The position numbers and the translations under genes are program-made. Under the pieces are notes generated by a model that saw only the letters and a list, made by a program, of their open reading frames with translations, was not told the DNA's origin and did not search any database. A stretch of DNA of 64,000 bases from Dimorphilus gyrociliatus (lineage: Eukaryota > Animalia > Annelida). The stretch spans positions 1-64,000 of the forward strand of contig CAJFCJ010000060.1 of NCBI GenBank assembly GCA_904063045.1, given 5' to 3'. Shown piece after piece: positions 7,950 through 61,701 of this stretch. How positions within the stretch are numbered: the first letter of the stretch is position 1; each line of letters opens with the position of its first letter.

Positions 7950-9100
7950 CTTTAGAGTTGGGTTCTGGTTTGGATGGTATCCAAAAGTACTGTCAAACCC
8001 AGAAAATAATAAAATTGCAGCTGGTGATTGTTCAAATCTTCTCTTTCTCCTCTCAGTTCTTGTTCTTTGATTTTTTGTCAATGCCTGTTTGCAGAACCAC
8101 CAATGGTAGGTAGCTTTTAAGGAAGATATGACTGATTTCCAGATAATTTTGTTAGGACAGGTCTTGGGGTTTGGGTTAACCTTAGTTCCCAATATGAAGG
8201 GTTTATAGGTTGTTTCAGATGATATATGAGTACCATCTTCTCTGTGCTTGCTCCTTTCATCATCTTGTATTTAGTGTTTGTTTCTTTGTACCATTCATTA
8301 AGAATTGACAAATGGTTATCATTACTTCCCAAGCCAATTTGTTCTCTAACTTTATCTGGATAGCTAAGTAGGAGTTTTCCTTCTTTTTATTAATCTTTTG
8401 ATAATATGGTAGGTGGTGTGAAGGTTACTTAGGTGTTTCTAGAATTAAACTTTTCTCCTCTAGGGGTACTAATACTTCTGTTCCAGGACCACCAATACCA
8501 TCTATGAATCTATCTTGATAAAGGATGTCCAGTATGGAATAGTGTCCTGTAAATTTAATACAGTTAACCTAGTGACTTCTTAGTTTCCAGGGTGATTCTT
8601 GACCTGGTGTGTAATCATTGTTTAAGGTTTTAATAACAATGATGGCCTCATCTGTTTTACAATACGATTGTCCAGGCAAGAAAATCCAGCAAGTAGTCAA
8701 GGTTAGTGATTATTCTCTGATATGTGGGTTGGAAATATACTTTTCCGGATTAGGGTTTGGTTTTGGTTAGGGTCTGTACCACTCACAAAACTGTTTTTCA
8801 ATGGATGTTTAACAGTTGTAAGTTCCAAATTTGGGGTCTGGTTAGAGTTGAATAAAACTAGTTTTCTTTTTCACTTTCCAGTGCCACTGTTTTTGTTAGG
8901 CAGGGTTCCCACTGATGTTTAGGAAACTATAGCACACCCAATTGTGCTGAAGTCCAATGTAGATTTATGTTTTCATGGATTTCAAAGTAGGATAGTTGTA
9001 GGTTCCAAATTTGAGATCTGGTTAGTGTTGAATAGACTTTTCTTTTACTTTCTAGTTTCAATATCTTATTCCTGAAGTCAGGAGACAAGTCCAATGTCAG
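7950..9100 (-). mobile_element. env: Degenerate retrotransposon env (class III-type) fragment, divergent lineage
   Basis: Minus-strand pieces GKVYFQPTYQRIITNLDY, GQESPWK, PYQDRFIDGIGGPGTEVLVP and ILNEWYKE align with the env at 54530-55040; many frameshifts. Confidence 0.7.
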
Positions 9101-9329
9101 TTGCACAACTTCTATTCAATTTAGTAGGTTAAATTTTAATGTTTTCAAAGTTAAACTATATTAAAAGAAACAATATTTTGACTTTACTTAAGTCTTCTTC
9201 ATGTTTAAAATGCCTTTACTGAACAAATTTAAGCTTTACATACCCTACACCAATACACAAAAGATGGCTGACCAGGTACATGCGGGCCATCTCCTGGTAT
9301 ACAAAATACAATAATATTATGCTGAGAAG

Positions 9330-10468
9330 TCATCTGATCAAGACAAAATAACTACCAATCTGGAATATATGGAAGACTGTCCCATAAAACATAGATTCTG
9401 TAGAACACTGAATACAATCATCATATTCAATCCAAAGGAAGGGCAACACCTTTTTGGCCATATGTCACCTTGGAAAATTGTGTGAAAAACATAGAATGTG
9501 TTAAGCTAGGAGGATACTTTTCATGTCCAAACTTTGCTATAATGGACCTACCATATCAAGACAGATAAATAAGAGGATTTGGTGGACCAGGAACAAGAGT
9601 ATTAGTTCCACATTAAGTATTTGATTTACTAAGAACTGACCTCAAAGAATCAAATTATGCAAATAAGAAAATGCTAGCAGACAAAAAAATACCAAGTTAT
9701 CTCAAATATTGAGACCATGAGACTAGAAAAGTTTCAAGGAAAAAAGAAATCATTTTTGAAAAATGTAAATGAAACAGATAAACAAAATATTGTTTATATT
9801 GTTACAATGATTGGTATAGAGAAGATGATAGAAGTTATCACATGTTGCTAAAATCCCAAGCAACAGTATTAGTAAAAACACTTATTTTGGAAAACATTTT
9901 TTCGCCTGATATTAGGGATATAGATAATAATTACACTCTGACAATGTTGAAAGATTCCAAATTAAAATCCACTTCAAAGATTAGACTGGAAGCCTTCAAA
10001 TTGAACCACAAAGAAATCACTTTCAGCTTATTACCAAAATTAGGTGTCTGGTATGAAAGTCCAACAGGAAAAGATTTTCAAACAATGAAAGTGAATGGAA
10101 AATTTACACTTTTACATCATAACTCAAATATTGCAAAATGGAGAATGGAGGGAAACATGATGCAAACACACAACAATTTCAGAAGTTGGACATTGAAAAT
10201 GCAGTTAGAAAATCTGCCTTACTCAGTAATATTGATAGGAACTTCCAAAATTTACAAACTGCACTCAAACAAGTATCTCAACTTTTATGCAAGGAGTTTT
10301 TTATGAGAAATAAGATGGTGGCATTGCTTACACCTTTGGCCCCTCAACTCCCAACAATATTGGATCCAACACAGGAAACTCACAGCACTTGGCTGGGTGA
10401 TTCAACAACACTCAACACATGCACAGAACTAAAATCAGTTCAAGTAATTTGTGATATTGGAATCATAA
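9330..10468 (+). mobile_element. env: Degenerate retrotransposon env fragment, close to the 49.7-57.4 kb element
   Basis: Nucleotide and protein similarity to 54550-55670, e.g. MRNKMVALLTPLAPQLPTIL...HSTWLGD.TTLNTCTELKSVQVICD; stops and frameshifts. Confidence 0.85.
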
Positions 10469-10680
10469 TGTACAACTTTGGTTATATTTTATGCACCTAT
10501 GTTATTCTATGCAAATATGCATGTATCTATTAAAAACCTATGCAGGAAAATGTAATAACATTTGGCCAAACATAAACTTGATTAGTCATCCTTAAGGCTC
10601 ACCTTTAATTGCCAGTTCAAGTTTGGCCAAGTTATAATTCAATTAACCTCTCCATATGTTGAACCTTTGTAACATCCTGT
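10469..10680 (+). mobile_element. 5' part of an LTR (13102-13736 family), truncated near the Tc1 insertion
   Basis: Starts tgtacaacttt; reverse complement matches 13490-13736. Confidence 0.75.
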
Positions 10681-10719
10681 TTTTTTTATAAAAATTACTA
10701 TTGTTTTACAATTTTTTTT

Positions 10720-11925
10720 TCTTATTTGGCCAAACAACATGATTATTGGCACATAATCTTTTGAGTTCAAATTTTCTTTATCTTTGTAAGTGCCAACCCT
10801 CCCTTTCAATACATTTACTAATCCTATGGCCCATTCCATCATACAAATTTCGAAGCAACTCTGGATTCTTCTTTATGAGCTCATAGGAACATTTTTTAAT
10901 TTTTTCCCATAATTCATCCTCTGACTCATCCTGTGGCCCATCATAGACCATTATTTTTGTTAGGTGCCACATGTTTTTGATCAGGCTCAGGTCAGGGCTC
11001 CTTGCTGGCCCATCAATGGTCTTAATTTCATTTTTTTTAAAGGCCCTTGCTGTTGCTCTTGCTGTATGGCAGCCAGCATTATCTTGCTGGAAGATGTACT
11101 TCCTGCCCATTTTTGCCTCAATCTCTTCTATAACAGGAAGAACATCTTCCACAATGAAGGAGCTATAAATTTCTGCATTTAATTATTTCTTTATCCTCCA
11201 TACTTTGAATATGCCATCAGATGTGATCAACCCCCAGACCAATACTCTGCCTCTTCCCATATTTTTTGTCACCCTAAAGTCCTCTTGGCTATTGTTTGTC
11301 CAGGTCCTAAAGTCATCAGGTCCACTTAGTGAGAATCTAGCCTGTCAGTGAAAATTACTCTAGACCAGTCTAGATTATCTCTAATCATTTTGAGGCAATA
11401 CTCTCCTTGCCAGTTACAAACTTTGGAGGTGAGATCTGTTTTTTCCTGATTCTTTTGTATTTGAAATTTTGCCTTTTTAGCCCCCTCTGAATTGTTCTAA
11501 TGCTTACATCTACTTCTAATTCTTTCAAAACCTGCTGTCACCCCTTCCTTATTATCTTTCAGCTTCTTGACAATCCTTTTCATCCTGGCTATCTCTCTGT
11601 CTGAAAGCTTCTTCAGACTGCCCCTATTGTCTTGCTCTGGCTCTTTATAGTTGATGATGTTTCTTACTGATGATGATGCCATTCCTAAAACCCTTGCCAT
11701 GACCCTCAATTTCCCTATTTCTGTATATTTTCTGACTACAAGCTCCCTAATATCTTTACTCCACACCATTATTAAAAAAAGTACTATAACTATAATATAC
11801 AGTAATTGAAAAAGTCTATAACTAGGAAACTTAACTTAAAAAAGCTGTTTGAGATGTCTATTTGAATGCCAAAGTGGATGTCAAGGAAGTGTGCCAATAA
11901 TCATGTCGTTTGAACAAATAAGGAA
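10720..11925 (-). mobile_element. Tc1-family DNA transposon, inactive
   Basis: Inverted repeats cttatttggccaaacaacatgattattggcac / gtgccaataatcatgtcgtttgaacaaataag; N-terminal HTH ORF 11497-11769; catalytic ORF 10778-11152 with FQQDNA..H...PARSPDL; third catalytic residue at D+34 is K instead of E; frameshifted middle. Confidence 0.9.
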
Positions 11926-11984
11926 AAAACTTATGAAAATTACTAGAAATATTTTGCTAATAATATTTACAAAATATGATGATT

Positions 11985-12220
11985 TTGTTACTATGAAAAA
12001 ACTTCAGAAATATTTGGAAAGAAAGAAATCTCAACCAATGGCTCCAGATATCCAGCAAGGGGAACTAAATGTCCCAACACACTCAAAAATAGAATTTGAT
12101 GCTGAAACAGTACCTCCTCAAAGCTACCAAACATTTACAAAAAAAGATAACAAAGTCAATGTGACAAGTCCCAGACATTTTGTGGAAGCAAGGTCTTAAA
12201 AGGGTGGGAAATTTGTTCAC
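11985..12220 (+). mobile_element. 3' end of an env-bearing retrotransposon (env tail, polypurine tract, LTR start)
   Basis: ETVPPQSYQTFTKKD matches EEIPLQTYPTFKKD at 56350; ggaagcaaggtcttaaaagggtggga PPT block also at 56425 and 61040; TGTTCAC at 12214. Confidence 0.7.
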
Positions 12221-12539
12221 TTCAGAATTATAACATAAATACATAGAAATTAGAATGGTGGAATATTAAAAAAACTATTATTTAATATAATTAATATCTC
12301 AAACCCAAGAAAGGCTTTTTTTTAGTAGAATTAGGTGCTTTGAACCCTAGAAAGGCCTTTATTTCACACAAAATATTTTCCCTAGTGGGCATTTTCTCCT
12401 GGAGAATTATGGAAGCATATGTGGAAAATTTATTTTTCAAAAATAGTTGAAATGTTTTTCAAACTCCAACTGAAAATAATCTAAAGAAATTGAAAAGATT
12501 TATACAGCTGAACTCTGAATACCACTGCGTGGATGGTTC

Positions 12540-13101: not shown

Positions 13102-14270
13102 TGTACTGCTCTTGCTGGCAAAATCTATGTGTTTGCAAGTTATAACAATACTGGTTCTACTCAAACCTTTAAAATAATGTTTAAATTAAAATGGTTTATT
13201 CGCAATAATAATACTTAAGCAAGTAACAATATGAGAGTTTGATAGCAGAGTAGATAGTTCGTAAAAGCAGGTTGCCAAATTACCAAACTGTCTTCTAATG
13301 TTGAGGAGTAGATGGATGGTTCCAGTGGAAGTTGTTTCCAGATGATCTTCCCAGGTCCTTGGGTCCAGATGGAAGCTGCATGCCAAATGAGAAATGTGAG
13401 GATTTATATACTTTGAGGTTTACCTCTGACATCCAATCATCACTTTACAGTTGCTGAAATGTGTAGTTCATATTTATGTTTAGTAACAGGATGTTACAAG
13501 GTTCAACATTTAGGAAGGTTAATTGAATTATAACTTGGCCACACCCTAGGTAAGTTAATTAAATTATAACTTGGCCAAACCTTTATTGGTAATTAAAGAT
13601 GAGCCTTCAAGCTGACTACTCAGACTTATGTTTGGCCAATGTTATAGATTTTTCTTGCATAGGTTTTAAGATGTACATGTATATGTTGCATAAAATAATA
13701 GAGTTCAAGCATATAAAATATAGCTAAAGTTGTACAACTTCCCCCTTTGTGAAGATGAGTCCCTTCATCTTGATTTAATGAGAATTACAGGTGGTTGTTC
13801 TTCTTCATTAGTTTGATGTTGACTAGACCTACAACTTTGTTTCATTAGTTTTGGGTTTTCAGGAGAGTTATCTGTGCCCTCACTTGGGGTAGCAGTTTCT
13901 TCTCTTTGTTTTCTTCTTCCAATAATATAGTTGAAAATGATGATACATACCATTGAAACTACAATACTCAAACAAATATTACGTATGATAACATAAAGTG
14001 TTTTCCCAGGTTTATAGTACCAACTATGGAAAAACTGCTTAATTCCAGATAGGTTGGGTACAATGCCATTTTTCTCTGCAAACAGTGACCATGTTATCTA
14101 TCATACCTTGCCTGCTTCTGTTCCAGTGAACTGATAACTTGCTTAATTTTTGAGTGTTGGTATGCAATATCCTTCTTTACACCATGGTGGAGTAGGTCAG
14201 CTAATCTGGCAATTTCAATTTTTGGTTCAGAAAGGTGATTGTGGATATGTAACTGAATGGATTTTGCAAA
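13102..14270 (-). mobile_element. 3' end of a third env-bearing lineage: env C-terminus with TM, PPT and complete 3' LTR (13102-13736)
   Basis: EPKIEIARLADLLHHGVKKDI aligns with EPKLEVARLTELIQLGIKEDV; TM-tail ORF 13765-13971; PPT aaagggggaagt directly before TGTACA; LTR ends agcagtaca. Confidence 0.85.
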
Positions 14271-14274
14271 CACA

Positions 14275-15970
14275 GTGTGAAATCTGCATCCTCTTTCTGA
14301 ATAAACAAAATTGTTGGAAAGACTTTAAAGACAAAATAAAACAACAAGTAAAAAAAGAGTTTGAAACAATCTGTCAATTTCCGTTTAGGAGAGATAATGA
14401 AAAATAGATCAGTTTTATAGATTATTCAATTCCTAAACATCTTATAGCGAAAAAAGTTAAACCACACCGGAATAGACGTACCTACAATGACATTGAATTT
14501 GCCAGTGAGATCACAAAAGGCTATAACAGAATTCTTGTACAAAGAAATGCTGGGATAGGAAAAACTCACCATTTTACAAGAGTTCTGCACAAATGGGCAT
14601 CTGAAGGTCAAATGTTACAAGGCTATATACTTTTATATGTAAAATTGAATGAGGTAAAGAGTAATACAGACTTTTACGAAGAGCTATTGAAACAAAATGT
14701 CAAATATGATTAATTATGATGTCAAGTATCATTATCATTTAAAAGTCTTATTCTTAACAGATCAATTGAAAAAACAGACGAGATCGAGAAAACCAACTAC
14801 TTTGGTGGACTTTTATTTCCATACAAAAGAAAGAGAAAAGGAAATGAATTATTGAAATTTGTTCATTTTTCTTTTCAAGAATACTTCACTGCTTATTATA
14901 TTTCTACAAAATATATAAAAGACAACGGCAATAAATCCGACTTGAACACTGCATTGGAAAATCCAAAATGTACCATTTTTCTGCAAAATGTCTTTACATT
15001 CCTACAAGAAATGGACCATGCAGTATTTTCACTGATACTTACTGAATATCCAAATGTTCTGGGCAATTTAGAAATTCATAGAGATATTATTGACATTCTT
15101 CAAACTTAGAATTATACACAGAATCCTACTGTGTGTCAGAATTGTATTCATCTACAGAGCTCAGTTTTGAATTTAACAATTGAGTATATATTGAAAAATA
15201 TTACTGCTATTGATTTCACTTTTGTTAGTGTTGAATTTCCAGATTTCTTCCTTATCATTAAACAAAAATTGCAAGGGTGTCTTACAAACTTAACATTTCA
15301 TGGCGGAATTAAAGAATCAATTGATATTTCCTATTTGGAGAATATTTTGGAAGCATTCAAAAAACTTGAATGTCTCAGTTTTTCTAACATTCCATTTAAA
15401 AGAAAGTTGTTAAAAGCACTGTTGTCTACAAATATTCAGATTGTAATATCAGTGAAAAGACTGCTAGAAACCTTTACAAAAATAGTCTATGCAAAATGAA
15501 TGATTTGTCTGAATGAGCTGTTTAAACACGATATCCATTTGGGAAATTTGTATTCTTTAAACTTTTCATATAATAATCTTTAAGGAGCTAGAAGCTTTTT
15601 TAATTCATTTCAAATGGATAATTTAAGTGAGTTGTATTTGAAAAGATGCCAGTTAGAGAGTAAATGTTTGAAACTTGTATATCTTTATTCAATTCTCTTG
15701 AAATTATTGATTTATCAGAAAATTCATTTGAATTTTATGCAATTCATTTATCTGACAGATTCATCCGTACAAACTCTTGTCTAACAAGTCTATCAAAATC
15801 ACAAAAGTTTAAAAGTAAACTCTTTAATTAGGCAACAGTGATTTGAAAGTTCTTAATTATTGGGGTTGTAATTTTTTTAATACAAAAGCTTCTTTGAAAA
15901 TAGAAAATATTTTAGAAAATTTTACTGGAATACAGAGATTAAGTTTAGATAGGAATGAACTCGTGGAAGA
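14275..15970 (+). pseudogene. NACHT-LRR (NLR) pseudogene, internally deleted
   Basis: RILVQRNAGIGKT...LHKWA (NACHT Walker A), FVHFSFQEYFTAYYI (winged helix), LRR-like LYSLNFSYNNL, LSELYLKRC, LDLSENHL; many stops. Confidence 0.75.
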
Positions 15971-22270: not shown

Positions 22271-22599
22271 CCATTTTTACATACTTCACTGATATAGCAC
22301 TAAAAACTGTTGGTTAAACAAGAATATCCGGCATTGGTAATTGAATTCTGCAATTCTCCTGCATTAACTATAGATATGGGTCATGAGTAAAATCTTAAAT
22401 AAATCAATTCATACAGCTAACCCTGAATTTAATGCAGACAAAAATATCATTCACTGAGTCTTTATGCTTAATTAAGCCACTACTTTTCATTATCAGATTT
22501 CGCTCATCTGAGAAGTTTCCCAGACCCATTCAAAGTTGCTTCTCTTTGTTTTTGTGTTGTCTTTTCCCCAATATAGTAAAAAATTACTATACAAATTGT

Positions 22600-23181
22600 T
22601 TATACTATAATACTCAAACAGATGTTTTGTAAAATAGTGTAGAGTGTTTTTCCAGATTGGTAGTACCAATTATGGAAAAACTGTTTAATTCCTGAGAGAT
22701 TAGGTACTATTCCATTTTCTCTGCTAACAGATACCATGTTGTCATACATGGCTTAGTTCTGTTCCAGTGAACTGATTGCCTGTTTTATTTTTGAGTATTG
22801 GTATGTAATATCTTTCTTTATCCCATGGTGGAGTAGGTCAGCTAATCTGTCAATTTCTATTTCAGGTTCAGAGTGGTGACTATGAATATTCAACTGATGA
22901 TCATATTTTTTTCTTGTTGGAAGATAAATGACTAAGAAATGATCAAATGCAACAGAAACCATCATATCATAAATTTCAACTATAACAATATATCTGAATA
23001 GAGTTGCTTCTTTTAAATCACTTTTTAGAATTGTAACAGCCAAAAGTAAATTTAATGGAATTCCCATAGCAACTGAGAGTAGTAATGTAACAATTGGAAA
23101 CAATTGATTATATAACCAAGTACAATTTTCATTTTTTGTTGTATTCATTGTTCTTTTATACTCTAATAGAAATTCTGACAA
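22600..23181 (-). pseudogene. Rhodopsin-type GPCR N-terminus/TM1-TM2 fused in frame to a retrotransposon env fragment
   Basis: ORF 22753-23181: NCTW...LLSVAMGIPLNLLL...LFRYIVIVEIYDMMV (TM1 N, TM2 D), then EPEIEIDRLADLLHHGIKKDI; 22640-22900 matches 13998-14270 at nucleotide level. Confidence 0.65.
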
Positions 23182-26164: not shown

Positions 26165-26692
26165 TTATCTTAGGTACAATCGAAAAGTTTCAAACTATGT
26201 GCTGTAATTTTAAAATGGCTCAGCTACTATCATTGATACTGTCCAATTGTCTTAGTAAATTAGTAAACTTTCATTGTGCAAACTTTCATTCGATTCTGTT
26301 GAGCCATTACAAATTTATTTTGGTGTAAGCAACTGCAAGTCATGTGCATATTGTTCTGATCAACAACAAATCATTGCATTTTTAGTGCATGAGAAGGTCT
26401 CTTCAAAACAAATTTATAAGTGGTTAAAAAGCTAATTTGGGGATGAAACTCTGAGTGAATGTTCCATAAGAAGGTGGGTTTCTGACATAAAAAAGGGAAG
26501 AAAAAATTTGGAGAATTCCCAAGATCTGGTTGTCCAAGGACAGCTGTAACAAGTCAGAACAGAGAAACAATTGACAGGCTTATCAGAGAAGATTGGACCA
26601 TTTCTCAGAGAGAAATCGCCAAAAAATTAGAAATTTGTAAAGAGGCTGTAGGAAAAATTATAAAGGAGCTGGGGTACAGAAAGATCTATGCA
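26165..26692 (+). mobile_element. 5' half of a mariner element (end sequence plus HTH region), truncated by an LTR fragment
   Basis: IIAFLVHEK..SKQI...FGDETLSECSIRRWVSDIKKGRKNLE...SGCPRTAVT...IDRLIRED..ISQREIA..L...LGYRKI; preceded by a 70-bp LTR piece at 26090-26160. Confidence 0.75.
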
Positions 26693-26991
26693 TGATAACC
26701 CTTGACCCTGTTTGTTGTGAACAACCCTTATCTGGAGTTAGACCCTTGTTGTTGACACCAATGGCACAAACAACTGATAAGGAATTGTATATAAGACAGG
26801 GTGTAGGTAGTAACAGGCATTCAGTCCTGAATCAACCCTCTTAGTCAACAGGTCTAGTATTACTTTAGAATAGAGTTTTATTGTTTTTACAAATTGCTTC
26901 TATATTCATCTTTATTCAATTCTACATCTCTTCTAAGTGGCTTATTCCTAATTTGATTTAATTTGGACCAGTACTTACTTACAACCCTATA
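26693..26991 (+). mobile_element. 3' part of an LTR of the 33.9-39.7 kb element family
   Basis: Near-identical to 39428-39728. Confidence 0.88.
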
Positions 26992-26994
26992 GCT

Positions 26995-33910: not shown

Positions 33911-34017
33911 CGGATCAAACAGATATTGGCACGCCTGTTGTATGACCACTTTGAATTGATCTTTGTGAGGAGGCCACCCCATTCAAGCAAAAACCATACA
34001 GATTACCACCTATAAAA

Positions 34018-46000: not shown

Positions 46001-46960
46001 AAAGAACACATTCATAAACCTTTGCTTTTCGAAAAGCCTAGAAAATATCTCACTGTCTTTATCACCTTTTATGAACTCTTTTACTTTAAGATCTGTTATT
46101 TTGGAAAAGACAATACAATAGTGTTTTTGTGTCTAAAAAATAATTAATTTCTATTTTATATTTATAAACACAGACCTTCTAGTTCTTTATAACTGCACTG
46201 AATCACTGCTCCTGCAGCTCCTTTTGCCAATTCCTTAGTTATATTGATATCTAATAAAAGATTGCCACTGAATGAAATTATATAAGTAGAATTGTCAGTT
46301 TGTAAAGTATTTTTTGTGAAAAATTGAGACTGTTTGCAAAGATTTTTCCTGTTTTTTGAATTTTTACTAATTGGATAAATATTTTGTCCATTTTTCAAAT
46401 ACAACTCAAAATCATTGTATCCAATTTTAAAGGCAAAAATGTCTATATTTTAATAAGAATATTCAAAATGATTATATTCATTTACTCATTCAGATGTTAA
46501 ATAAAAAAAGAAACTTGTACATGTACTATTTCTTTTATAGCATTTCAAACAAGACCGATAGTTTTCTGTCTTAGGAAGATGTTTACTGAAATAGGGCCAA
46601 AATGGTGGAAAAATCATTTTAACAATCAAAAATTTAATGACTAACATTTTGCAACATTGGCCACCTACTACAACTAAATATCCTTGTATATCATATTTTT
46701 CAAGTGGATAACAAGGGAATACATTGGAATGTAATGAGTCATAGGCAAAATGTTGACATATTATATTACTCTCATAAGTAGTCTTTATTGAATGTGCTGC
46801 CCATTCAGGTCCATTGTTTGAGTCAAAAAATAAATAGCCCTCAATTGAACTATAAGTTTCCAGGTACACTTGAAAATGCAATTTGATGTTTTCTTCAGAA
46901 GCAAAAACTGTTGTTTTTGAATGAAGAAAAAAAGAGACAAATAGATAATTGAACATATCT
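40073..46960 (-). CDS. Multi-exon GRL101/LGR-like GPCR: SRCR-like, C-type lectin-like, multiple LDLa, LRR, 7TM, kinase-like tail
   Basis: LDLa repeats (VCDGKADCPLSEDESNC, VCDFIKDCSDGSDEEFC, VCDFQLDCADGQDEKY, VCDGINHCLHNDDESIC), LRRs (LQYLDLADNKL, LRYLDFSNNPI), hinge LCCL, TM3 ITLEKY, TM6 GWLPISIL, TM7 LPLNSTINPF; 5' end and some exon borders uncertain. Confidence 0.87.
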
Positions 46961-47479: not shown

Positions 47480-48500
47480 CCATTTTTCCTTTCCTCCTTT
47501 GATATATTTTCTTTCTGTTAACTCATGTTCAAACTTTTTTTAGACTGCTAAACACTTGCGTTCAGTAATTCCATAGTTTTTTTCCAAAGCTGTCAACTTC
47601 TTGCTTGCCCATCTTATGATGACTCTGCACATTCCTTTATCTGTTCATGCTCCATTGCTACAGTCCTTTTAATCCATCAGTAGCGTTGATGTTTTCTCAC
47701 TATACTTTGGTATAAATTCTAAAATTCGGCATTAAAGAAGATATTGGAAAGAAAAGTGTACAGCTAGAACAAGTCTTGGACTACATGACAAATAAGTTGG
47801 ATCAACACTCAGATCAATTAAATTATGCAAAGCAAATTGGCATTGACCCTTCAGTAACAAAAACTGGAAGATATTTTATGGCATGGGTGAATAAACCACT
47901 ACAAACTATTATTAATTTCCTTATTCCTGCAACAGCAATGGGTGCAATTGGAACAATATTGTATTGGATAAAAACAAAACAGATTCACAAAAACATAATG
48001 CAAGGACTACTGAACAGATTTAGAAGGACAAAAGATATCCAATCCATTGAAGAAGGTCAACCCTTGAAGATTGTCAGCAGCAGGAAAGGACAAGTTATTA
48101 TTGCCCTTGTTGAACCATCAGTGGAATTATGCTTTAAGAAGAGGAGAAGTTTGTACACTTATGAACTATAGATAATAGATATGATATTAATGGTACTTAC
48201 AACATGATGCTAGAAGTCTAGTATTACTTTAGAATACAGTTATATTGTTCTTACAAATTGGTTCTATATTCATCTTTATTCAATTCTTCATCTCTTCTAA
48301 GTGGCTGACTCCTAATTCAGTTCCATTTGGACCAGTACTTACCTACAACCCCATAGCAGGAAAGTACAATATCATTGATATAAATCTCAATTTCATCACT
48401 ATAAATATCTTTGAATATTTTACTCATGATTCACTGCAAAATCTGTGGAGAGTTTTTAAATCCCATTGCCATTGTGATTAAATGCAAAGGCTGTCCTTTT
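47480..48500 (-). mobile_element. Relic of an unrelated Ty3/Gypsy RT/RNase H, interrupted by a lineage A fragment
   Basis: MAMGFKNSPQILQ.IMSKIF...IEIYINDI at 48369-48500; FIPKYSEKT and RWASKKLTALEKNYGITERKCLAV at 47500-47715. Confidence 0.7.
47716..48368 (+). mobile_element. Second copy of the lineage A 3' end (env TM tail, PPT, internally deleted LTR)
   Basis: Near-identical to 38727-39740 but lacking ~39227-39589. Confidence 0.93.
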
Positions 48501-49718: not shown

Positions 49719-52700
49719 TTGGCAAAAAGAGCAGAAATTTACTTTAATAATCCAAGGAGAGAAGATGAAAATGAATTCAAGCAATTCAAAAAAAGATTTG
49801 ATAACAATAACAGTTATGCAAATGATAATGACCATAAATTTACACCTTTTTCTCAAAATAGGACCCATCAATACCAAAGATCTGGAAATGAGAGAGGTAC
49901 CTTCAACAGATTAATTCATGCTGAACCTGATCAACCTAATGAAAGAGAAACTTCCAAGGGTACAATGGCAATATTTAATCTTAAAGAGGAGAAAGTTGCA
50001 CATTTCAAGTGCACATCTCAAATAAAAGGAAGAGATGATTTCCAATTTCGTTTGAAGAATCATAATGGAAGAGAAGTGATTGCATTATGTGACACAGGAG
50101 CACTCATGTCATTTATCACTGAAAAAAAAATTAAATTATTGGACCAAAAATGGGTAAAGAAAGAAACCACTTCATTACCATTAATAACTTCAGCTGATGG
50201 AAATGCTTTGAAATCTAAAGGTAAAGCAAAACTTAACAGACAATTTGCTGGAAGAATAATGGAACAAGAATTCTTTATAATGGAAAAATTGGATATGGCA
50301 ATAATTTTGGGATGTGACTTCTTAAGAAAGTCTGGAGCAATAATCAACTTTGCAATTAAACAAGTTTCACTCCCATTCTTTATAAGAAAAGGAGAACCCG
50401 TTAAAACTTTTCTACAAAAAAGACAAAAGGATCAAACACACAAAAGAAACCAAGGGAAACCTAACAAACTAACTGTAGGAATGATTGGACAATATGCTCA
50501 TGAACATGATGACCCATCTGAAGTGTCAGATAGTGTGGATTCAGATATGGATATTACTGAGCCAGATACTGGATATGATACAAGTAATACTTATGGCTCA
50601 AATGAAACTTTGAGTTCTTCTGAAAATTATGATACAGAGATGAGTAATGAACCAGAGCATAACTCAGACTCAGATTTGGATATTGTTAATGGTATAAAGT
50701 CATCTGAAGAAGAAGCCAATAATATTTTTGAGTCTGACAATGATTCAATCATTATTATAGATTCATCTGAAGAAGAAAATGGCAACATAACAGATTCACA
50801 CAATAACTCAGTTATTATCATTAACTCATCTGCTGAAGAAACTGAAACTGAATCTGAAGAATTAATTACAGAAATGGAAATGAAAACACAATACATAGAA
50901 TTAAAGGATGGAATAACTATCAAAGTTGAAAAAGAACAAATGAAAACTCCAGCAACTCCTGAGATAGAAGAATTACTGCTGGAAAGTGTTGAGTTTGAAC
51001 ATATGTCTAATCAAAATATACACCACATTAATTCAAATACAGTAGAAATTGACAACTATTTACATGTGTCCAAAAATAATCCTGACAAAATCAGGGAAGA
51101 ATTGAAAGAAATCATCAAGAATTATGAAGACATTATTGCTACAAATCAAAATGACATTGGCTCACCAGATGTTCCACCAATGGCAATTGAATTATTGGAA
51201 GATGTGAAACCTTTTAAACAAAGACCATACAGATTACCACCCAACAAACAACAGGAATGCAGGGAACAACTTAATGGATTATTAGCAAATGGTTTGATTA
51301 GAGCAAGCAAAAGCCAATGGGCTTCACCAATCGTTTTTGTGAAAAAGAAAGAAGGAACATTCAGAATGTGTGTAGATTACAGAAAACTTAACAAGTATTC
51401 AAAAAAGAATTGTTATCCAATCCCACACCAAGAAGATTTATTTGACAAACTTGGAGGAGGACATAAATACTTTTCCATCTTGGATTTGACAAGTGCATTT
51501 CACCACATCCCTATCAAGGAAGAAGACAAAGAAAAAACTGCTTTCATAACACCATTTGGTCTATTTGAATTTAATCGAATGCCTTTTGGTTTAGCAAATG
51601 CACCCTCACACTTCAGCTATATTATGGCAAATTTTGTCATAAATGGATTAGAAAATTTCTGTATTAACTATATGGATGATATTATTGTTTTTACAAAACA
51701 TTGGAGGAACACTACACAAGTCTACAGAAACTGATGGAAAGAATCAAAGAAAAGGACTTCAGAATCAAGTTAAGCAAATGTGCATTTCTACAAGAATCAG
51801 TACAATTTCTTGGTCATAGAATTACACAGAATGGTATTGAAACTGATCCAGAAAAGATTCAAAAGATAAAAGATGCTGAATTACCAATGTTTGCAAATAC
51901 TTTACTAAGTTTTGTAGCATTTTGTGGTTATTATAGAAGATTCATCAAGGACTTTGCAAAAATTACAAAACCATTGAGAGAATTATTAAAACTACATCAG
52001 AAGACTGAAAGACTAAAATGGACTACAGAAGCAGAGAAAGCGTATCAGACACTAAAGAAATCAATGACAGAACCACCAATACTTCAACTACCTGATTTTA
52101 GTAAACCATTCTATCTAACAACAGATGCCTCCAATTATGCAGTTGGTGCAGTTTCAGAACAAGAATGGGAAGAAGATGGAAAGAAAATAAGAAAGCCAAT
52201 TTCTTTTGCTTCAAAACTCCTAATCAATACACAACTAAGGTATGCAGCTTATCAAAAAGAAGCTTTTGCAGTCTATTGGGCAGTACAAAAATTCTCCCAT
52301 TACTTGCAGTATAAGAAATTTTTTCTTTACACTGATCACCAAAATTTGGTACAAACATTTGTACAAAACAAATTAAATTCAAGTACTGTTAAATGGGTTG
52401 TGGCACTTATGGATATGGACTTTGAAATAATTTACATACCTGGAAGAACCAACAGAGCAGACTGGATATCCAGAATTGGAGAAACTGATGAAGTTATTGA
52501 TTTCCGAAATTTACTAAAGGAAAGACTAAATGAAGAAAAACAAAATGGCAATACAATTCCACAATTAGCAGAAAGAAAGGATATGCTTAAATGCTTTTAT
52601 ATTGATACAGAAGATTTAGAAGACTTAGCTGATTGTTTGGATGACATTTTAGACAATAATGATGGTTATGATGAAGAAGCAGATGACAAAAAATTACAGA

Positions 52701-54033
52701 TCATGAAATTAAAAAATAAACCTGTTGAGATAAACTTCTACACTGAACAAGTTTTGGATGACACCCTAATGAAAATTGTAGAAAAATTGGAAGGAGCAAA
52801 TATTGATGTTGAAATGTTCAAGGAATACAAAAATTTTATTGAACATATGTTTGTCAAAGATGATTTAGTATGGTATCTGAATGGTTGTCAACCATTACTG
52901 GTAATTCCACTACTAACTTTAACAAACCTACTGAACCAAATACATCAACATCAAATATTTGAACACTATGGTGTAGACATAACAATTCATACTTTGGAAC
53001 AAGCTTTCTGGCATCCACAACTTAAGAAAACAATTAAAGACCATATAAAGAATTGCAAATTCTGTGAACAATTAAGAGCACCTGGAAACAAACATCTATT
53101 GGTTGAAACACCCCATCCAACTCTACCAATGCAAAGAATTGCAATGGACATAATGGGACCACTAACAGGACATGAATCTTACAAATACATACTTGTCATT
53201 ATAGATCACATGTCAAGATTTACAAATCTATTTCCATTAAAAACTCAGACAGCTGAAGAAATATCAAAACACTTGTTTTTTAACTACTTTCCAATATTTG
53301 GTATTCCAGAAGAAATTCTCACAGACCAAGGACAGAATTTTCTGGGAGAAATATTTACAGAGATGGTTACATCAATGGGAATAAGGAAAAAAAAAACAAC
53401 AGCATTCCATAGCCAAAGTAATGGAATGGTAGAAAGAAAGAATTTGGAAATTCGCAGAGCACTACATAAACATGTAGTTATGGAACAATTAACAGATTGG
53501 ACAAGACAATTACCAATAATTCAAACATGCTTAAACCAAATTCCAGTGGGAAGCACAGGCAAAACTCCACATGAAATATTATTTGGATTGAAGAATAGGA
53601 ATGTCTTAGATGTGTTAATGGAAGTTCCAAGATTAGAACCAACAACAAAATTTCTATTTGATAGAAAGCATGAAATGGAAGAAATAAGAGCAACTGCATT
53701 GTGCAAATCTGTCATGAAAAAGAAGGGATATAGAGATAGAGTAAACAAAACTATCACAAGAAAACCCCCAACTTACCAAATTGGTGAATGGGTACACATA
53801 AAAAACGAACACATTGGACAAGGAATGAATAGAATAAATACAAGCAAATGGAGTGGACCATACATTGTAACTGCTACTGATACTACAAAATGTCTTTATG
53901 AATTGGAAATATTAAATGGCAAAAGAAAATTCTACCATGCTAGTAGACTAAGATTGGCTAACAAACAACCAACTAGAGTTAACACACTCAAGGTAGAGAA
54001 ACAAGAAAGGAAAGTTGGAACACTTCCTATAAG
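49719..54033 (+). CDS. pol: Gag-tail/Pol polyprotein of lineage B (PR, RT, RNase H, IN), one -1 nt lesion in RT
   Basis: LCDTGA protease, ILGCDFL, YMDD, TDASNYAVG, HHCC, intact D-D-E (IAMDIMGP, LTDQGQNF, SNGMVER), WSGPY; frame change at acaaaacattg ~51690. Confidence 0.95.
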
Positions 54034-56400
54034 AGGATCCATTGTTTACACTCTGCTAGCTCTCTGCTTATTAAACTTGGTTCAGGGAAATGCATCAATA
54101 ACAAAAGCAAACATAACTGTGAGAATGCTTCCTTCAGTACAATTCTGTCAAGGGCAACAAGTACATCAGTCATTTGATCTGGCTGATGAACCAATTTGCA
54201 CATTCAAAACTAAACAAATGACCAAAATAATGGCAAATATTTATGAAATTAAAGCTGATAATTTGGCAATACAAGCTGTTAAGTGTTTGGTAAAGAGAAG
54301 AATCAACTTTTACACTCATTACTTCTTTGGAGCAAAGAAACACAGAGTTGAAAAACAAACACTTACCTTAAGTGACAAACAATGCAGAAAAATGTTATTG
54401 TCAAAAAAGACCTTAAATGGACAAAAACTCATTGAAAAAGGAAACCTTCTAATGTACAATGAAAACAAAGGATCAAATTACAAATGGCCAAGAACAACAG
54501 TGGTTGAAGAATTTACAACAATTCTCCAAATTGGCAAAGCTTATTGGCACCCAAGTCAGGATAAGATAACAACCAACTTGGAATATTTAGAGGACTGTTC
54601 TATCAAACATAAATTTTGTAGAACTCTGGATTCCATTATTATTTTCAATCCTCAGAAAGGACAAAATCTCCTTGGTCATGAATCCCCATGGAAAGCAGTA
54701 TCCTACAATGTAGAGTGCATTAAGCTTGGAGGATATTTTTCATGTCCCAACTATGCAATAATGGATTTACCTTATCAAGATAGATATATCAAAGGATATG
54801 GTGGTCCTGGAACAAGAATTTTAGTACCCCAGAAGGAATACGACTTATTAAGAACTGATCTTACAAATTCAAATTATGCTGACAACAGAATGATGGCAGA
54901 TATCAAATATAAAATCATTTCAAACAAAGAAGTTTCAAGATTGCAGAATTATGATGGAAAGAAATCAACTTTGAGAAAAGCAAATAATACAGAAATACAA
55001 AATATACTAACCTATAATGATTGGTATAGAGATGGTGACAAGACTTATCATATGCTGATCAAAAATCATGTAACACCACTGGTTAGGACCTGGATGGTCA
55101 GAGAAATAATCTCACCTGATATATGGGATATTAACAACAAATACATACTCAAAATGTTGAAAACAACCAAAATAGAACCTGCTAGAATGGCAAAAGCAGA
55201 AGATTTTGAACTCAACAAGAAGAAAATTAGTTTCAATCCATTACCAAGACTGGACACTTGGTACCAAAGTCCAAAAGATAAACAATTTCAAACACATCAA
55301 GCAAATGGAAAATTTACACTTTTGCAAAGAACACCAAAGAAGCATAAAATGGAGGAGAAGAGTATCAGAAAGCATACAAAATTTCACAAAATAGACATAG
55401 CAGATGCTATTCGAACATCTGCTTTATTAAATAACATTGATAAAAATTTCCAAAATTTACAAACAGTTTTCAAACAAGTATCACAACTTCTATGCAAAGA
55501 ATTCATTATGAGAAACAAGATGGTAGCATTACTCACACCATTGGCACCTCAACTACCAACAATACTTGGATCTAAGCATGGAATGCACAGTACATGGCTT
55601 GGTGATCTAACAACCTTAAATACTTGTACAGAATTAAAATCAGTTCAAGTAGTGTGTGATACAACAATTATCACCAAAAATGGATTATGCTCCAAAGAAT
55701 TTCTCATCAAGTATAAAGATCTCTTATTGTCAGTTGATCCAATACTCCATCATGCTTACCACATAACAAAAGAAGATATAAGATATGGAGATTGTGACCA
55801 AACACAACACCTGTTCAAAATTAAGAAAAACCCACTGGACATTGAACACAATCAACATGCAATGTATTCTGGAAAGAAAACATTCATCTATTACACAAAG
55901 AAAGGATGCAGATTTCAAACTGCAGCAGCACAATCAATCAGAATGAAAATAAGCAATGAAATTGAAGAACCAAAATTAGAGGTTGCTAGACTTACTGAGT
56001 TAATACAACTTGTATAAAAGAGGATGTTGGTAAGAAACAATAACAAGTTCAACAAGTTTTAGAATACATTCAAGACACTTTAACAAGACATAAAGAGCAC
56101 ATAAACTTTGCTAATGATTTGGGCATTGATGCTGCTTTGTCTAAAACTGAACATATATTCTCATCATGGGCCAGGACACCTTACAAAACACTCATCAACA
56201 TACTTCTTCCAATAACAATAATCATTGGAATTGGGATTCTGATTTGGTTTCTTTGGAAGAAAGACTGGAAAAGAGTACACTTCACCAAGCTAGCTAAGCT
56301 TTTAGCTAGAAAAGAAAAGTTACCTACAGCCCCAACAGCTGAACCAGAAGAAATACCACTACAAACTTATCCAACATTCAAAAAGGATGGTGACCACTGA
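54034..56400 (+). CDS. env: Env-like class III fusion glycoprotein (~790 aa), in frame with integrase; one frameshift and one stop near 56010-56045
   Basis: Signal IVYTLLALCLLNLVQG; AVKC..R...YFFGAK...QCRK; NYKWPRTT; LC..FIMRNKMVALLTPLAP...STWLGDLTTLNTC; C-terminal TM ILLPITIIIGIGILIWFLW plus cytoplasmic tail. Confidence 0.88.
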
Positions 56401-57396
56401 TTGTTTCAAGCCCAAGACCTTTCGTGGAAGCAAGGTCTTAAAGGAGTGGGATGTTTGTACACATTTAGGCAGTTCGTAGGTACTAAACACATAAGCTCGT
56501 AACCAGGCTCACAAACTCACACAATACACCCAAATTGTTACATTTCATTCATCAATGGAAAGCAATATTGAAAGAGTATTATAGAGTACTTACATACCTA
56601 AAACTACAACATACACTATTTAAACTAGTTTATTTTAAACTAGATGTTAACCCTAATTATTATACACATCATATTTAATGAATATTAATTATATCTTCCA
56701 CTATTCTATTTATATTTGGAGCTTTTAGATTATTGTCACTTTTCAACAGTATTGTATGCACAATACTATATTGAATGATTAAGTTTAATACTTTTATCCT
56801 ACCAGTCCTTTACACAGAAACATATTATCTTACACAAATAATTATTATTAATAATTTGTTGTATATTAAAACGGCATCAAGTTGACCTTTTCCTATTTTT
56901 GTGTTTTGGAATCAATCCAACTTCTATTAATAATTGTTACATCTTAGGCAACTTTCTGACCTACTAAAATAGGGAGCAAAAGTTCTCCAAGATAAAGAAA
57001 AAGTAACAAACATGGAAGTATATTTGAACTTTCCCTTTATCCAAATTGTTACATTTGTTTGTGTGAATATTTTATCCGTGAACTGTGAACTATTGGAAAA
57101 GTATATAAACCCTACGAATTTAACAGTAGTCAGTTCAGTTTTCTAACCATCAGCTGGTTGTTCAAACTTGCTTGTTTAGAACTAGAAACTCATTTACTCA
57201 AATACATATTCTTTGAATGAAATACTGGTGTTTGTTGGTTAATTTTTACTGGAATTACATTTATTAAGACTACTTGTGGACGAACTTGAAAGGTTCTATT
57301 TGGACCAGTACTTTGGCACATTGGTAAATGATTGGAGAGGACGAATTTGATAGTGACGAGCTAGGACTTCCTACAATTACAATACAACAAAGTACA

Positions 57397-58876
57397 ATTA
57401 TCGCTCATTATTTTATTCTGGGCAAAGCATTTAAAAAAAGAATTTAGAATGTTATTAATACTAAGTGATTTTTTAACAGCTACATACGTCACAGCTATTG
57501 CAAGTGTAGCAACATATTATAAAAGTCAATATATTGAACACGATAGATATTGGCGTCAGAGTATCCTCTGCCGAGTACTCGGTCAAATTATGACGTTTTC
57601 TCTACTACTCTCTGCTGTTAGTCTACTATTGCTAACGCTAGAAAGATACGAAGCAGTTATTAATCCTTTAAAGCAATCTAAACTTTTGGCCTATAAACAT
57701 AAAATTGTTGGAGTAGCATTCATTATTTGTCTACTAACAACAATCATACCATATCTTCTGTATGGCAATGTGAGTATAAGGGAAAATGGAAACAGACACA
57801 CACAAAAACCAATTTTTAAACACTTATTAGATTGATACCATGGCAACGCCAATTTGTTTTAGTATACACATAAGGAGTGAAAAGACTGATGGATGGCTCT
57901 ATTCTTTCATAATGTTTATTATAATATTTATAATTAACAATATTATTGGTATTTTATATATAATAATTTTAATTAATATCAACAAATCATTTACAAAATT
58001 TCATCATCAAACAACAACAATAAGGCAACAAAAAATCTTTAAAATTGTCTTTCTTGTCATTCTAACAAATATGATCTGTTGGCTTCCTATGTCAATACTT
58101 GGTTTGTCTTGGTTTTTTCAAGTTCAAACTGTTCAATTTTCACTCTTAATTTCTCTTCCTTTCAGCAACTTTATCAGCAATAACGAATATTTATTTTAGT
58201 AATGACACTTACTCAATAATAGTCGCTTTATTATTGCCAATTAATTCCATACTTAATCCATGTTTATATTCTTCTGGTGATATTAGTAAAATTATTGAAG
58301 ATCGGAGAAAAAAACTTGAATTCAAAAGGTTTTCTCTCTCTCTACATATTTATCATGTTTATCAATCTCTATTTGCACAAAACAGACAACAGCTTATTGA
58401 ACATTCTAAAAATAACCTACTTGAAAGAGGTAGTTAATTAATTAATTAGTTAATTAATAATTGAAATATTTTTATCAGTTTTGAAATTCTTCCTTCTTTC
58501 CCAAGAAAATTGTCTTATTCAAAAGACGCCTCATAGACAGTTTAAAAGTCTTTATACAATAAAACATTTGTCCAAAAGCTACAATTGCTTAAAAGTTTTA
58601 AAGGACATTGTCTTTGGAATATCCTATTGCCACAACAATTCTTTAACATTTAAAAAGGAAATTTCAATAGATAATATTTATTTTGATGTAAAATTTTATG
58701 TTCATTCAAATATTCCAATATGAATGATTTTTTCATTTAAAACTTTCAATATTTCTTAGGAAGAAAGTCAAAGATATTTTGTCATTTGGGAGGAATTTGT
58801 AAAAATTGAAGATCATTTGCAAAAGAGAGATATTTTTTCTATTGGAAATATTACGAAAAAGATATTAGTGTGGTGA
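57397..58876 (+). pseudogene. 3' half (TM1-TM7 plus kinase-like tail) of a second LGR/GRL101-like GPCR; ectodomain absent from the window
   Basis: LSDFLTATY, RYWRQSILCRVLG, LTLERY, MICWLPMSIL, LPINSILNPCLY; introns at the same positions as in the 40-47 kb paralogue; begins exactly at the LTR end. Confidence 0.85.
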
Positions 58877-59499
58877 TTAGAGTGGTTCCTCTATATGAAA
58901 AATAAAAAAAAAACATTTCTTTAATTGATATTTTTAACTTACATGAAATAAAGCAAAAAACAAGCCATAAAAATGAAAATACTCTCTATGTAGGCATATT
59001 ACTCATTGTATTTGTCAACAGGGCATGTTAAAAATCACTTTAATAATTTAAATAATGATAATAATTATTTATGTGGAAAACACCTAAATAGATTATTATA
59101 TATTGTCAACTTTTTCATGGTCTATACTTGGGCACAGTTCATCTCCCTTACCCAATGCATTAGTAATTTTGTAATTATACACTTTTTAACAGACTGACAC
59201 TAAGCATAGAAAGTTACCCAATTTCTCAAATTTTTGTGTGTGTATTTCGAACACAATTTGCCAAGTCAGTATAAAATATTTACTAAAAATAAACAATGCT
59301 TGGACTATTATTGTTTATAAAGGAACAAGTATTTCAAGTTTACCTAAGAATGATGTTAGTTTAAGTGGTAAGTTCTTTATGTCCTTTTGGTGTTGGTCCT
59401 CCCCAACTAATTGGATAAATTATTTCTAAGATATTTCATTCATTTTGATGATATATATTGTGAGAATGGAAAAGTATTGTCTTTAAAGAGCTTCCTTAT

Positions 59500-60900
59500 T
59501 ACCATGAATTCACCAAATTGTGTACTATCTTTCTTTGAGAATGCTTGTAACTAGTTTTAAATATCTAAAACTGCTTTTACAAACTGTCTACTCTGCTATT
59601 GAACTCTCATATTGTTACTTGCTTAAGTGTTATTATTGTGAATAAACCATTTTGATTTAAACATTTGTTTAATCTTTTGATTCCATTGGCCTCTTCTTTG
59701 CCTAGTTGAATTGGCCATCCTTTTTAAATATTTCATATATATATATATGCATTTCTGCATATTCCTCCATTTTTATCATGTACTCACTAATTTCCTTGTC
59801 ATTTTTAATTGTTTATTATTATAAGTGCCATTGTTCCTTTAGAAGTTTCTCTTTCAGTGGATTCATCAGGTTCAGTAAGTATTAGTCTGTTAAACTTGCC
59901 TCTTCCCATTGCTGTGTTTCCCATTCTTTGATGTGGTTGAAATGTATTTTGGGTAAAATTTATGTTTGGATTAATTGGGTTGTTGTCATTTTAGCAATCC
60001 AGCTGATCTTCTCTTTGAATTGAATGCAGAATTTAAACTGCATGACTTTTTAATCAAGGACATTAAAAAGGATGATGCAAGATATATCATTTTTGGTGAT
60101 AATCATCAAATTGATCTGTTGAAGCAGAGAATGCTTCAAAGTGATTTCTGAACCATTTCAACAGCTTTTCAAAATCCATGCATTCATAAAAAAGAATGGA
60201 AATTTAAAGCAGGTTACATTAGTTTATATTTTTATGAGTCATAGAAAGAAAAAATCTTATAAAGCCATACTCAAGGTAAAATATATGTCTTATTTTCATG
60301 AATAACATTATATTTTTTAGGTGTTAGCTGATTTTTATATGGTCATCAAACAAATAAAATAGTTGTTGATTTTGAAGAAGCATTATGGAATTTTTCAAAA
60401 CACATTTCCATAATTTCCAACAACAATGTGTTTAAGAAAATTCAAGTAAGTTTTAAACAATCACTCAATAATTGAAAAGGTCTCCTTTGATACAGAGCCT
60501 TGGATATACAAAAGATTATAAAGAAAAAGATTATGAAGGAAAAATGCTCAGAAAAATTGTGGCTTTACCATTTTTACCTGACAATATAATTAAAAGACAA
60601 TTTAAAATTATTTAAAGAGTAGATATGAGATGTCTTCATTAATAAATCAATAGATGTCAATTTGTTTAATTTGAAATCATCCCACAAAACAAAAAATTTT
60701 GTTTGAATGTCAACATACTTCTTCTTTAGATGCTTATAAACCCTTTCTCACAATCATTATTGGTTGTAATTGATAAACCAAAAACTGACCAATTATTTGG
60801 TTTCCACAATTTATTTTCCATCCAATGTGTTTTGAAGTATTCTAAGAGATCCAAGAACTTATTTTTTTCAAAAAGCTCTTTCTTTAAGCTGTCAAATGTT
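59500..60900. mobile_element. Scrambled FLYWCH-MULE fragments on both strands
   Basis: VVDFEEALW, VFKKIQ/gt and KMLRKIVALPFLP on plus; FLYWCH and TNND..W-like pieces on minus; caactaggcaaagaagaggccaatgg resembles 63630. Confidence 0.6.
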
Positions 60901-60924
60901 GGTTGAATAATAGAAGAATTACAG

Positions 60925-61701
60925 ATCCCAACATACTCAACTATGGAAATTGACCAAGAAGCAATACCTCTTCAAAACTATCCAACATTTTCAAAAGAAG
61001 GTAATAGAGTCATTGTGACAAGTCCCAGACCTTTCGTAGAAGCAAGGTCTTAAAAGGGTGGGATATCTTAGATATAATGACATATCAATACTTAGACTTT
61101 AGATATAAGGGTACATTAGAAAGACTTCTATTTTATAAGAATTAGACTGGTGCAACTATAGAAATACTTATATTTTGTAGGAATTATAGTGGTGGAACTT
61201 TAGAAAGACTTTTATTTCGTAGTGTTAGCTTTTAGTACTTTAGAAAGAACTCTATTTTGTAAGAAATAGACTCTTGACTGTAATAGATGGTGGCTACTTG
61301 GGAATTAACAAAGGAACAAAGAACATGGAAAAGATGCAGGTCAAACACCAGATGCTGATGAGACAGGCCTGTTTACTGTGGCACATGTTTGACATGTGGC
61401 CCTAATCTTAGGATTATATTTTATATGTGTGATATAACAGTTTTTCATATTTTTGTTACATGAGAATTATGAGACCGTCAGATTTCAACTTTGTAATCCT
61501 TTGACCACTTGAACCCAAGCTTTGGAAATGTATAAAAGGAAATGCATTTCTCCAGCTTGTCCGTTCAGTTCTTTAACTGTTAACTGGTTGTTTAAACTTA
61601 CTTGTTTAGAACTAGAAACTCATTTACTCAATACATATTCTTTGGACGAAATACTGGTATTTTGTTGAATTATTTCTACCAAAATTACATTTGTTAAGAC
61701 A
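60925..61701 (+). mobile_element. Env tail, PPT and 3'-truncated LTR (~61066-61701) of a lineage B relative
   Basis: EAIPLQNYPTFSKEG, gaagcaaggtcttaaaagggtggga, reverse-complement match to 49090-49700. Confidence 0.88.

Follow-up and report, generated by a model that had tools for sequence, protein, structure and literature searches.

The Drosophila elements gypsy and ZAM are Ty3/gypsy errantiviruses that use their env in soma-to-germline spread, and this env occupies a separate open reading frame, is expressed from a spliced RNA and carries a furin site. In the accessible parts of Chary and Hayashi (PMC13524379), that env is classed as F-type, and an env of the herpes simplex virus glycoprotein B (HSV/gB) type is described in Ty3/gypsy 'ancient errantiviruses' across invertebrates, where it has diverged together with pol; the supplement of that paper lists Annelida_Polychaeta_Dgyr_errantivirus_1, with an ENV_HSV env, seven copies, long terminal repeats (LTRs) of ~630 bp, a span of ~9.3 kb and a stated primer-binding site (PBS). 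A single Gag-Pol-Env polyprotein with env last, whose glycoproteins are cut by host proteases, is described for Atlas virus and related nematode belpaoviruses in the accessible text of PMC9094657, and the available part of PMC5408684 reports extra open reading frames in rotifer elements, none of them a second protease. Here, we analysed positions 1 to 64,000 of contig CAJFCJ010000060.1 of the annelid Dimorphilus gyrociliatus (GCA_904063045.1; this whole stretch of 64,000 nucleotides is called the window), in which fragments sharing one env had been read as a local radiation of several divergent, active lineages.

We consider it probable that these fragments are the remains of three old Ty3/gypsy families (A, B and C) with an in-frame env of predicted gB type under purifying selection, and that family C additionally carries a second protease and a spacer, likely captured from family B. 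The reverse transcriptase (RT) has its best Protein Data Bank (PDB) match in Ty3 RT (4ol8, E 1e-66), with chains from caulimoviruses and retroviruses ranking lower, and its active-site motif is YMDD/YLDD. Together, gag, pol and env form one multicopy element with TG..CA LTRs, a polypurine tract and a PBS (at most one mismatch in copies of A, B, C and D, the last being the sister of C); the gag match is weak (PNMA, E 3e-4). Domain order was read directly from the frames of B and C, in which Pfam places protease (PR), RT, RNase H (RH) and integrase (IN) in this order, with an additional PR after IN in C. The proposal of at least three deep lineages was borne out, as env is 37–46% identical between the families, each of which has subfamilies, and synonymous sites compared among A, B and C are saturated or nearly so.

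Ratios of nonsynonymous (dN) to synonymous (dS) divergence, obtained as Nei-Gojobori estimates on natural copies, were low for env in sister subfamilies: 0.09 (0.06–0.12; 694 codons) for B/B2, 0.10 (0.07–0.14; 512 codons) for A/A1, and 0.10 (0.06–0.16; 237 codons) and 0.09 (0.05–0.14; 259 codons) for C/D, with the nonsynonymous proportion of differences (pN) reaching or exceeding the synonymous one (pS) in 0 of 1000 bootstraps. The corresponding values for RT were 0.03–0.06. Site patterns joining A with B against C dominate all eight ordinary modules (gag, the first protease PR1, RT, RH, IN, the N-terminal part of env, the env insert and the C-terminal part of env), and the C-terminal env tree agrees with this grouping (96/94); the N-terminal env tree was without resolution. 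Because env dN/dS is low and A groups with B in env as it does in gag and pol, these comparisons support one old env, inherited along with pol under purifying selection, as the original prediction held, and the congruence of RT and env that it asked for is seen within this genome.

The window (31% GC) contains two incomplete Ty3/gypsy elements, with env pieces at seven other places. When the A and B env of the window served as tblastn queries, complemented by env tails, env homology was recovered at nine of the nine places named beforehand, the best E in a reversed-window control being 2.6. On the minus strand, the spans were 8180–8746, 14115–14303 and 22549–22896; on the plus strand, they were 9336–10518 (where the DNA-level match stops at 10468), 36763–39135, 47716–48126, 54020–56397 and 60865–61005 (E 6e-5). 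The piece at 11985–12200 was missed by the A and B env queries and matched at 11951–12196 by env tails of other copies (E 2e-8 and 9e-22); like the piece at 60925, it consists of the env cytoplasmic tail plus the start of an LTR. For the first fragment, proposed to cover 7950–9100 on the minus strand, the homology held and the extent did not, only 8180–8746 being homologous. Conserved motifs lay where they had been reported, with GQESPW at 37399 and 8604 (minus), GGPGT at 9581, 37525, 54800 and 8493 (minus), and EP.[IL]E[IV].RL at 55967, 14228 (minus) and 22869 (minus).

Env trees, together with DNA identity to copies found outside the window, served to sort the pieces. Group A comprises the pieces at 36763 and 47714; group B those at 54020 (B), 9336 and 60912 (both B3) and 11951 (B4-like); and group C those at 13700 (C, 96%), 22522 and 8180 (the last two being remoter C-group members). 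The stretch 47716–48126 matches the A copy of the window at 96% identity and so is no lineage of its own. Family C is represented in the window by env pieces only; the protease-spacer block of B is present, and element B also keeps a gag tail upstream of its protease. The features are as follows.

8180–8746, minus strand: env fragment of a divergent C-group member (63% amino-acid identity to C, 59% to D; dN 0.20 and dS 1.43 against C)
9336–10468, plus strand: env fragment of subfamily B3 (88% nucleotide identity; frameshifts and stops)
11951–12375, plus strand: env cytoplasmic tail and LTR start, B group (79% nucleotide identity to B4, 73% to B3)
13700–14304, minus strand: 3' end of family C env, polypurine tract and LTR edge (96% nucleotide identity; C is the two-protease family)
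22522–22896, minus strand: C-terminal env fragment, C group (78% nucleotide identity to C and D; dN/dS 0.13 against C)
26692–26993, plus strand: partial LTR, A group (93% to the window's A LTR)
33955–36762, plus strand: element A pol, comprising RT, RH and IN (5' end lost beside a DNA transposon)
36763–39135, plus strand: element A env in the frame of pol, with hydrophobic leader, ectodomain (three stops), transmembrane anchor and tail
37615–38091, plus strand: family-specific insert of A env, between the N-terminal fusion/PH part and the central helix
39160–39740, plus strand: 3' LTR of element A, after a polypurine tract and ending in TACA
47714–48368, plus strand: second A copy, with env tail and internally deleted LTR (97% nucleotide identity)
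49977–50378, plus strand: element B aspartic protease (DTG; 65% amino-acid identity to the second protease of family C)
50463–50936, plus strand: element B acidic Ser/Asp/Glu spacer between protease and RT (27% D+E, 23% S+T), homologue of the pre-env spacer in C and D
51186–54019, plus strand: element B RT, RH and IN (one frameshift, in RT)
54020–56441, plus strand: element B env in the integrase frame (one frameshift near the ectodomain end)
54890–55354, plus strand: family-specific insert of B env (approximate limits, mapped from copy L001)
59812–59958, minus strand: B-group gag-tail/protease fragment
60912–61700, plus strand: B3 env tail and LTR region (92% nucleotide identity to copy L027)

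Three pieces of a FLYWCH-containing DNA transposon, which we take to be Mutator-like, lie in the window at 97% identity (31125–33914, 56456–57396 and 61963–63095); it lies directly against element A where the 5' end of that element is truncated, and it also splits the 3' LTR of element B. A DDE_3 transposase fragment (10781–11182, minus) is flanked by two B-group env pieces.

The radiation proved not to be local, as the families are genome-wide. A 207-residue env query against the genome gave 150 matches scored among 203 candidates, and among the matches listed, identities form tiers of 99–100%, 88–89%, 76–86%, 49–53%, 43–45% and 34–36%. Five long contigs (C5, C12, C14, C22 and C23) hold only 10 of the 150, the others with a size shown being at most 305 kb; insertions are piled on short repeat-rich contigs. 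Because so few matches sit on the long contigs, the window is not a local cradle but a repeat-rich sink in which families spread over the whole genome have accumulated.

Activity of all lineages is not supported, the signs of recent movement coming from families B and C. Among the matches listed, family B has seven at 99–100% over env, and its LTR pair is 96.2% identical, with pairs of 99.4 and 97.2% in B2; family C has LTR pairs of 99.1, 99.1 and 92.0% and no fewer than 40 copies whose second protease is at least 99% identical (40 of 40 scored; 121 candidates). In family A, with seven genome matches, the copies examined are broken and recent activity was not seen in them. A 4-bp target-site duplication flanks one of three C copies, and none was found at the single readable B2 copy. 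Some of the breaks may be assembly errors rather than decay, because single-base differences separate an assembly copy from an independent run (X1).

The original prediction went part of the way; it missed that env is gB-like and joined in frame to pol, and that family C has a second protease. Env lies in frame behind IN, begins with a hydrophobic signal-like stretch and closes the frame with a transmembrane segment and a cytoplasmic tail, segments judged from hydropathy and sequence alone. Its ectodomains hold two to five N-glycosylation sequons, and none of four contains an R-x-K/R-R site. Pfam returned no significant family for seven segments of env alone, and B env, used in a word-based search across 5.8 billion proteins, yielded none from 6809 candidates. 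A profile of 14 natural env stretches reached 21 proteins among 1.84 billion; one of them, a remote match, bears the name 'Envelope glycoprotein B' (hhalign 96.4%, 202 columns), and Monjiviricetes_fusion, Glycoprotein_B or Rhabdo_glycop_FD (Pfam) occurs in 10 of the 17 matches scanned. A model of the natural B ectodomain, with a predicted local distance difference test score (pLDDT) of 68 and a predicted template-modelling score (pTM) of 0.36, matched HSV-1 gB in the PDB (Foldseek E 9e-12) and gB and glycoproteins of negative-strand RNA viruses in BFVD; in a VIA search, the top 13 rows were class III fusogens, with Chandipura G at Z 7.9 (root-mean-square deviation 8.7, 179 aligned). Env is thereby predicted to be a class III (gB-type) fusogen. 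Counting against this assignment are the pTM of 0.36 and whole-chain template-modelling scores of 0.16–0.25, and because of them the prediction for this monomer covers the domain folds and not the arrangement of the domains, nor the five-domain hairpin, trimer and cysteine-bridge class that belong to the definition of the HSV/gB type.

Residues 258–449 of env (~190) face 17 residues in the nearest outside relative, P0005. The insert, of ~170 residues, is common to A, B, C and the outside relative P0001, is constrained yet faster evolving (dN/dS 0.15–0.31 in three unsaturated pairs) and reached a pLDDT of 78 when modelled alone. Fold searches with it gave no clear match, the top scores being Z 3.6 in VIA and E 0.015 in BFVD; this is no proof of a new fold. 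An origin by tandem duplication has weak support (hhalign 1.8%; 1 of 100 shuffles matched the score). Relatives on European Nucleotide Archive contigs from other assemblies (P0001, P0002 and P0003) include P0001, which represents a fourth deep lineage and shares the insert, and P0003, which falls in the C group.

The module order is gag-PR-RT-RH-IN-env in A, gag-PR-spacer-RT-RH-IN-env in B and gag-PR1-RT-RH-IN-PR2-spacer-env in C, where PR2 is the second protease; the C order was observed in 16 copies on 16 contigs, all elsewhere in the genome. Pfam detects two protease stretches within one stop-free frame in copies L023 and L022, each C module junction is in frame in several natural copies, and one contig of run X1 spans IN-PR2-spacer. 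PR2 is 65–67% identical to the protease of B, 51–53% to that of A and 26% to PR1 of its own family, and site patterns for PR2=B, PR2=A and A=B stand at 31:9:14 and 24:7:14. Between PR2 and B, dS is 0.96–1.43, short of saturation, whereas RT is saturated between C and B. The spacers consist of 26–28% D+E and 23–26% S+T, that of C being 53% identical in amino acids to that of B2, and no spacer was present in either of the two A copies that hold PR and RT. Because D, at dS 0.7–1.0 from C, also has the spacer in front of env, the PR2-spacer block is likely to be older than the C/D split. In a word-based protein search, a query of the IN C terminus and PR2 found one match among 328 candidates; among the metagenome contigs searched, 90 pattern matches gave none that was confirmed; and the literature searched, to which subscription journals and Repbase did not belong, held nothing relevant on two-protease LTR elements.

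Several observations count against this picture of family C. Among 28 stretches, there is not one in which every motif lies in a single frame (several end at stretch or contig edges), and the C-group copies L021 and L058 are without PR2, through internal deletion. The part of the element in which PR2 would be expected is missing from all three D copies, so that a PR2 predating the split rests on the spacer, and approximately unbiased tests do not reject a clade of A and B proteases that excludes PR2 (p 0.11 for protein, 0.27 for DNA).

Copy L021 (contig C115) joins a C-type 5' LTR, gag and pol (95–98%) to a D-type env and 3' LTR (95–98%). Three internally deleted C/D copies (L018, L055 and L058) have lost most of pol and kept spacer and env, and are possible non-autonomous env carriers. 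Reverse transcription of spliced RNA was rejected as the source of internally deleted copies, there being no GT..AG at the six junctions inspected. Contigs of run X1 skip 60 bases at L047:7504–7563 and 58 at L032:8617–8674, stretches with the minus-strand ends GTAAG/GTAAT...TTTTCAG. That the 60-nucleotide gap in PR2 is a DNA deletion was rejected: none of the 40 genome copies scored, out of 121 candidates, shows it, and its two ends look like those of a minus-strand intron. Antisense transcripts across C and B2 thus look spliced, which may hint at a precursor of the PIWI-interacting RNA type or at host read-through RNA.

Whether PR2 still works is a close call: at a little under an even chance, we take it to be a protease that would still be functional, under relaxed constraint, at the junction of integrase and Env. 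Its catalytic motifs D-T/S-G and G-x-D-F/L are intact (DTG and G-x-D-F-L), of 26 columns that do not vary among five other proteases it preserves 24, and the changes it has undergone tend to lie away from conserved positions (Fisher p 0.034). Plausible, if somewhat doubtful, is the alternative that PR2 and spacer are a passive passenger, a B-derived leftover of a nested insertion or template switch that stays stop-free only owing to the in-frame env behind it. Such a passenger would fit the PR2-branch dN/dS of 0.35, which is not significantly below 1 (dN at or above dS in 114 of 1000 bootstraps), the value of 0.60 (0.32–1.23) against the decayed C-group copy L063, a PR2 lineage branch longer than those of B, and the fact that families A and B manage with one protease; the two ratios tell equally against a functional PR2. 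It fits poorly with the preserved residues, and the motifs have persisted although the spacer-env junction is common to both C and D. On balance, selection on PR2 appears weakly supported.

A different history, which we place on the unlikely side, has A, B and C diverging in other hosts and entering this genome separately by horizontal or infectious transfer, so that they would co-reside here rather than have radiated. Synonymous saturation between the families is compatible with such entries, as is a fourth deep lineage outside this genome (P0002, best match in the genome ~50%), and a conserved fusogen would permit transfer. However, exchange of the PR-spacer block between B and C requires a shared cell at dS ~1 ago, old and young subfamilies of each family are found in this genome, and annelid clades in the accessible part of PMC13524379 are concordant with their hosts. 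It is also quite improbable that the exchange ran the other way, the acidic spacer having begun as a pre-env leader in C/D and passed to B by recombination within the homologous protease: A is without the spacer, C and D both have it ahead of env and the root within the protease tree is not settled, but PR2 belongs to the A/B protease group (51–67%) and not with PR1 of C (26%), so that a capture from A/B into C would be needed anyway. Descent of all fragments from one recent family, the counter-case set out in the original prediction, or a two-protease order produced by chimeric assembly is hardly credible in the face of identity tiers from 100% to 34%, the same order on 16 contigs and an independent contig that bridges the junctions, even though many copies are frameshifted and L021 is a C/D chimera.

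With three old families, one of which holds a captured block, as the preferred reading, a single Gag-Pol-Env polyprotein would be made, and its processing we infer from the anatomy of the element and the precedent of Atlas (accessible text of PMC9094657). Threaded into the endoplasmic reticulum (ER) by an internal hydrophobic stretch, Env would be freed by the signal peptidase of the host, and the protease of the element would separate Gag-Pol from the membrane-bound remnant; Env would serve soma-to-germline or cell-to-cell spread. In C, PR2 beside the membrane anchor would be placed to make the cut that releases Gag-Pol; the PR2-spacer block would likely have entered before the C/D split, when B and C RNAs packaged together allowed template switching. 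Weighing against a single polyprotein, family C has a Met just ahead of the signal stretch, and Env may therefore be made from a separate RNA.

A bolder version, which we regard as speculative and rather unlikely, gives C two working retropepsins, the captured PR2 being dedicated to the integrase-Env junction (freeing Gag-Pol from the anchor or travelling with Env), and makes the new, fast-evolving insert, which stands where herpes gB has a linker, a built-in receptor-binding module. Class III fusogens usually rely on partner proteins, and the insert is a candidate attachment domain in this fusogen class. B with one protease and C with two, both with the same env, form a natural pair for asking how a single-frame Gag-Pol-Env polyprotein splits between cytoplasm and ER. 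Moreover, the two-protease layout points to module exchange between families ~62% identical in RT, against a picture of 'infrequent recombination'.

Elsewhere in the window, an unbroken 1038-residue frame at 4660–7773 (plus) has the domains NIDO-TIG-AMOP-VWD-C8-Sushi and a GC content of 43–46%, against 31% around it; its product is presumably SUSD2/Mesh-like. Further host genes, or pieces of them, encode a reprolysin-ADAMTS_CR-EGF protease (28084–29742, minus), an LDLa-LRR receptor (41564–46132, minus), a seven-transmembrane receptor (57365–58196, plus), a weak NLR-like HD2 match (14720–15496, plus) and a weak PAN domain (23955–24957, minus).

Compared with described systems, family C comes closest to an element already catalogued. 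Its copies have 630–636-bp TGTA..TACA LTRs, spans of 9.15–9.31 kb and the PBS of Annelida_Polychaeta_Dgyr_errantivirus_1, with which, as far as the available supplement of PMC13524379 describes it, family C is very likely identical. A and B are not among the elements in the accessible part of that paper, because it has a single element under this host abbreviation. With the HSV/gB-type errantiviruses described there, the elements share a Ty3/gypsy pol followed by a gB-type env flanked by signal and transmembrane segments. For those elements a chromodomain is reported (HHpred, AlphaFold); in family C, Pfam gave no Chromo match after IN, where it placed a weak Integrase_p58_C and then a protease. 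The main text of PMC13524379 uses 'protease' once (Figure 1 legend) and 'polyprotein', 'in-frame' and 'acidic' not at all, and the seven text supplements searched contain neither 'protease', 'peptidase' nor 'insertion'; its figures and GitHub sequences lie outside this comparison.

The likeness to Atlas lies only in the single-frame layout with env last; Atlas belongs to the Belpaoviridae with class II phlebovirus-like Gn/Gc, in contrast to the Ty3-like RT, not of Bel/Pao type, and class III env found here, and the accessible text of PMC9094657 describes no second protease for Atlas or the belpaoviruses. Unlike the env of Drosophila gypsy and ZAM, the present env is of gB type by profile and fold, not F-type, lies in the pol frame and is free of R-x-K/R-R in all four ectodomains. 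With herpesvirus gB and the G proteins of rhabdoviruses and nyamiviruses, it shares a predicted fusion-domain/PH fold, central helix and crown, but identity is ~10% and a separately folding insert is added. A gB-type errantivirus env in invertebrates was thus already known, and to that picture our analysis adds dN/dS values for an old env under purifying selection and two more families; new relative to the literature searched are the two retropepsins of family C in one frame and the env insert.

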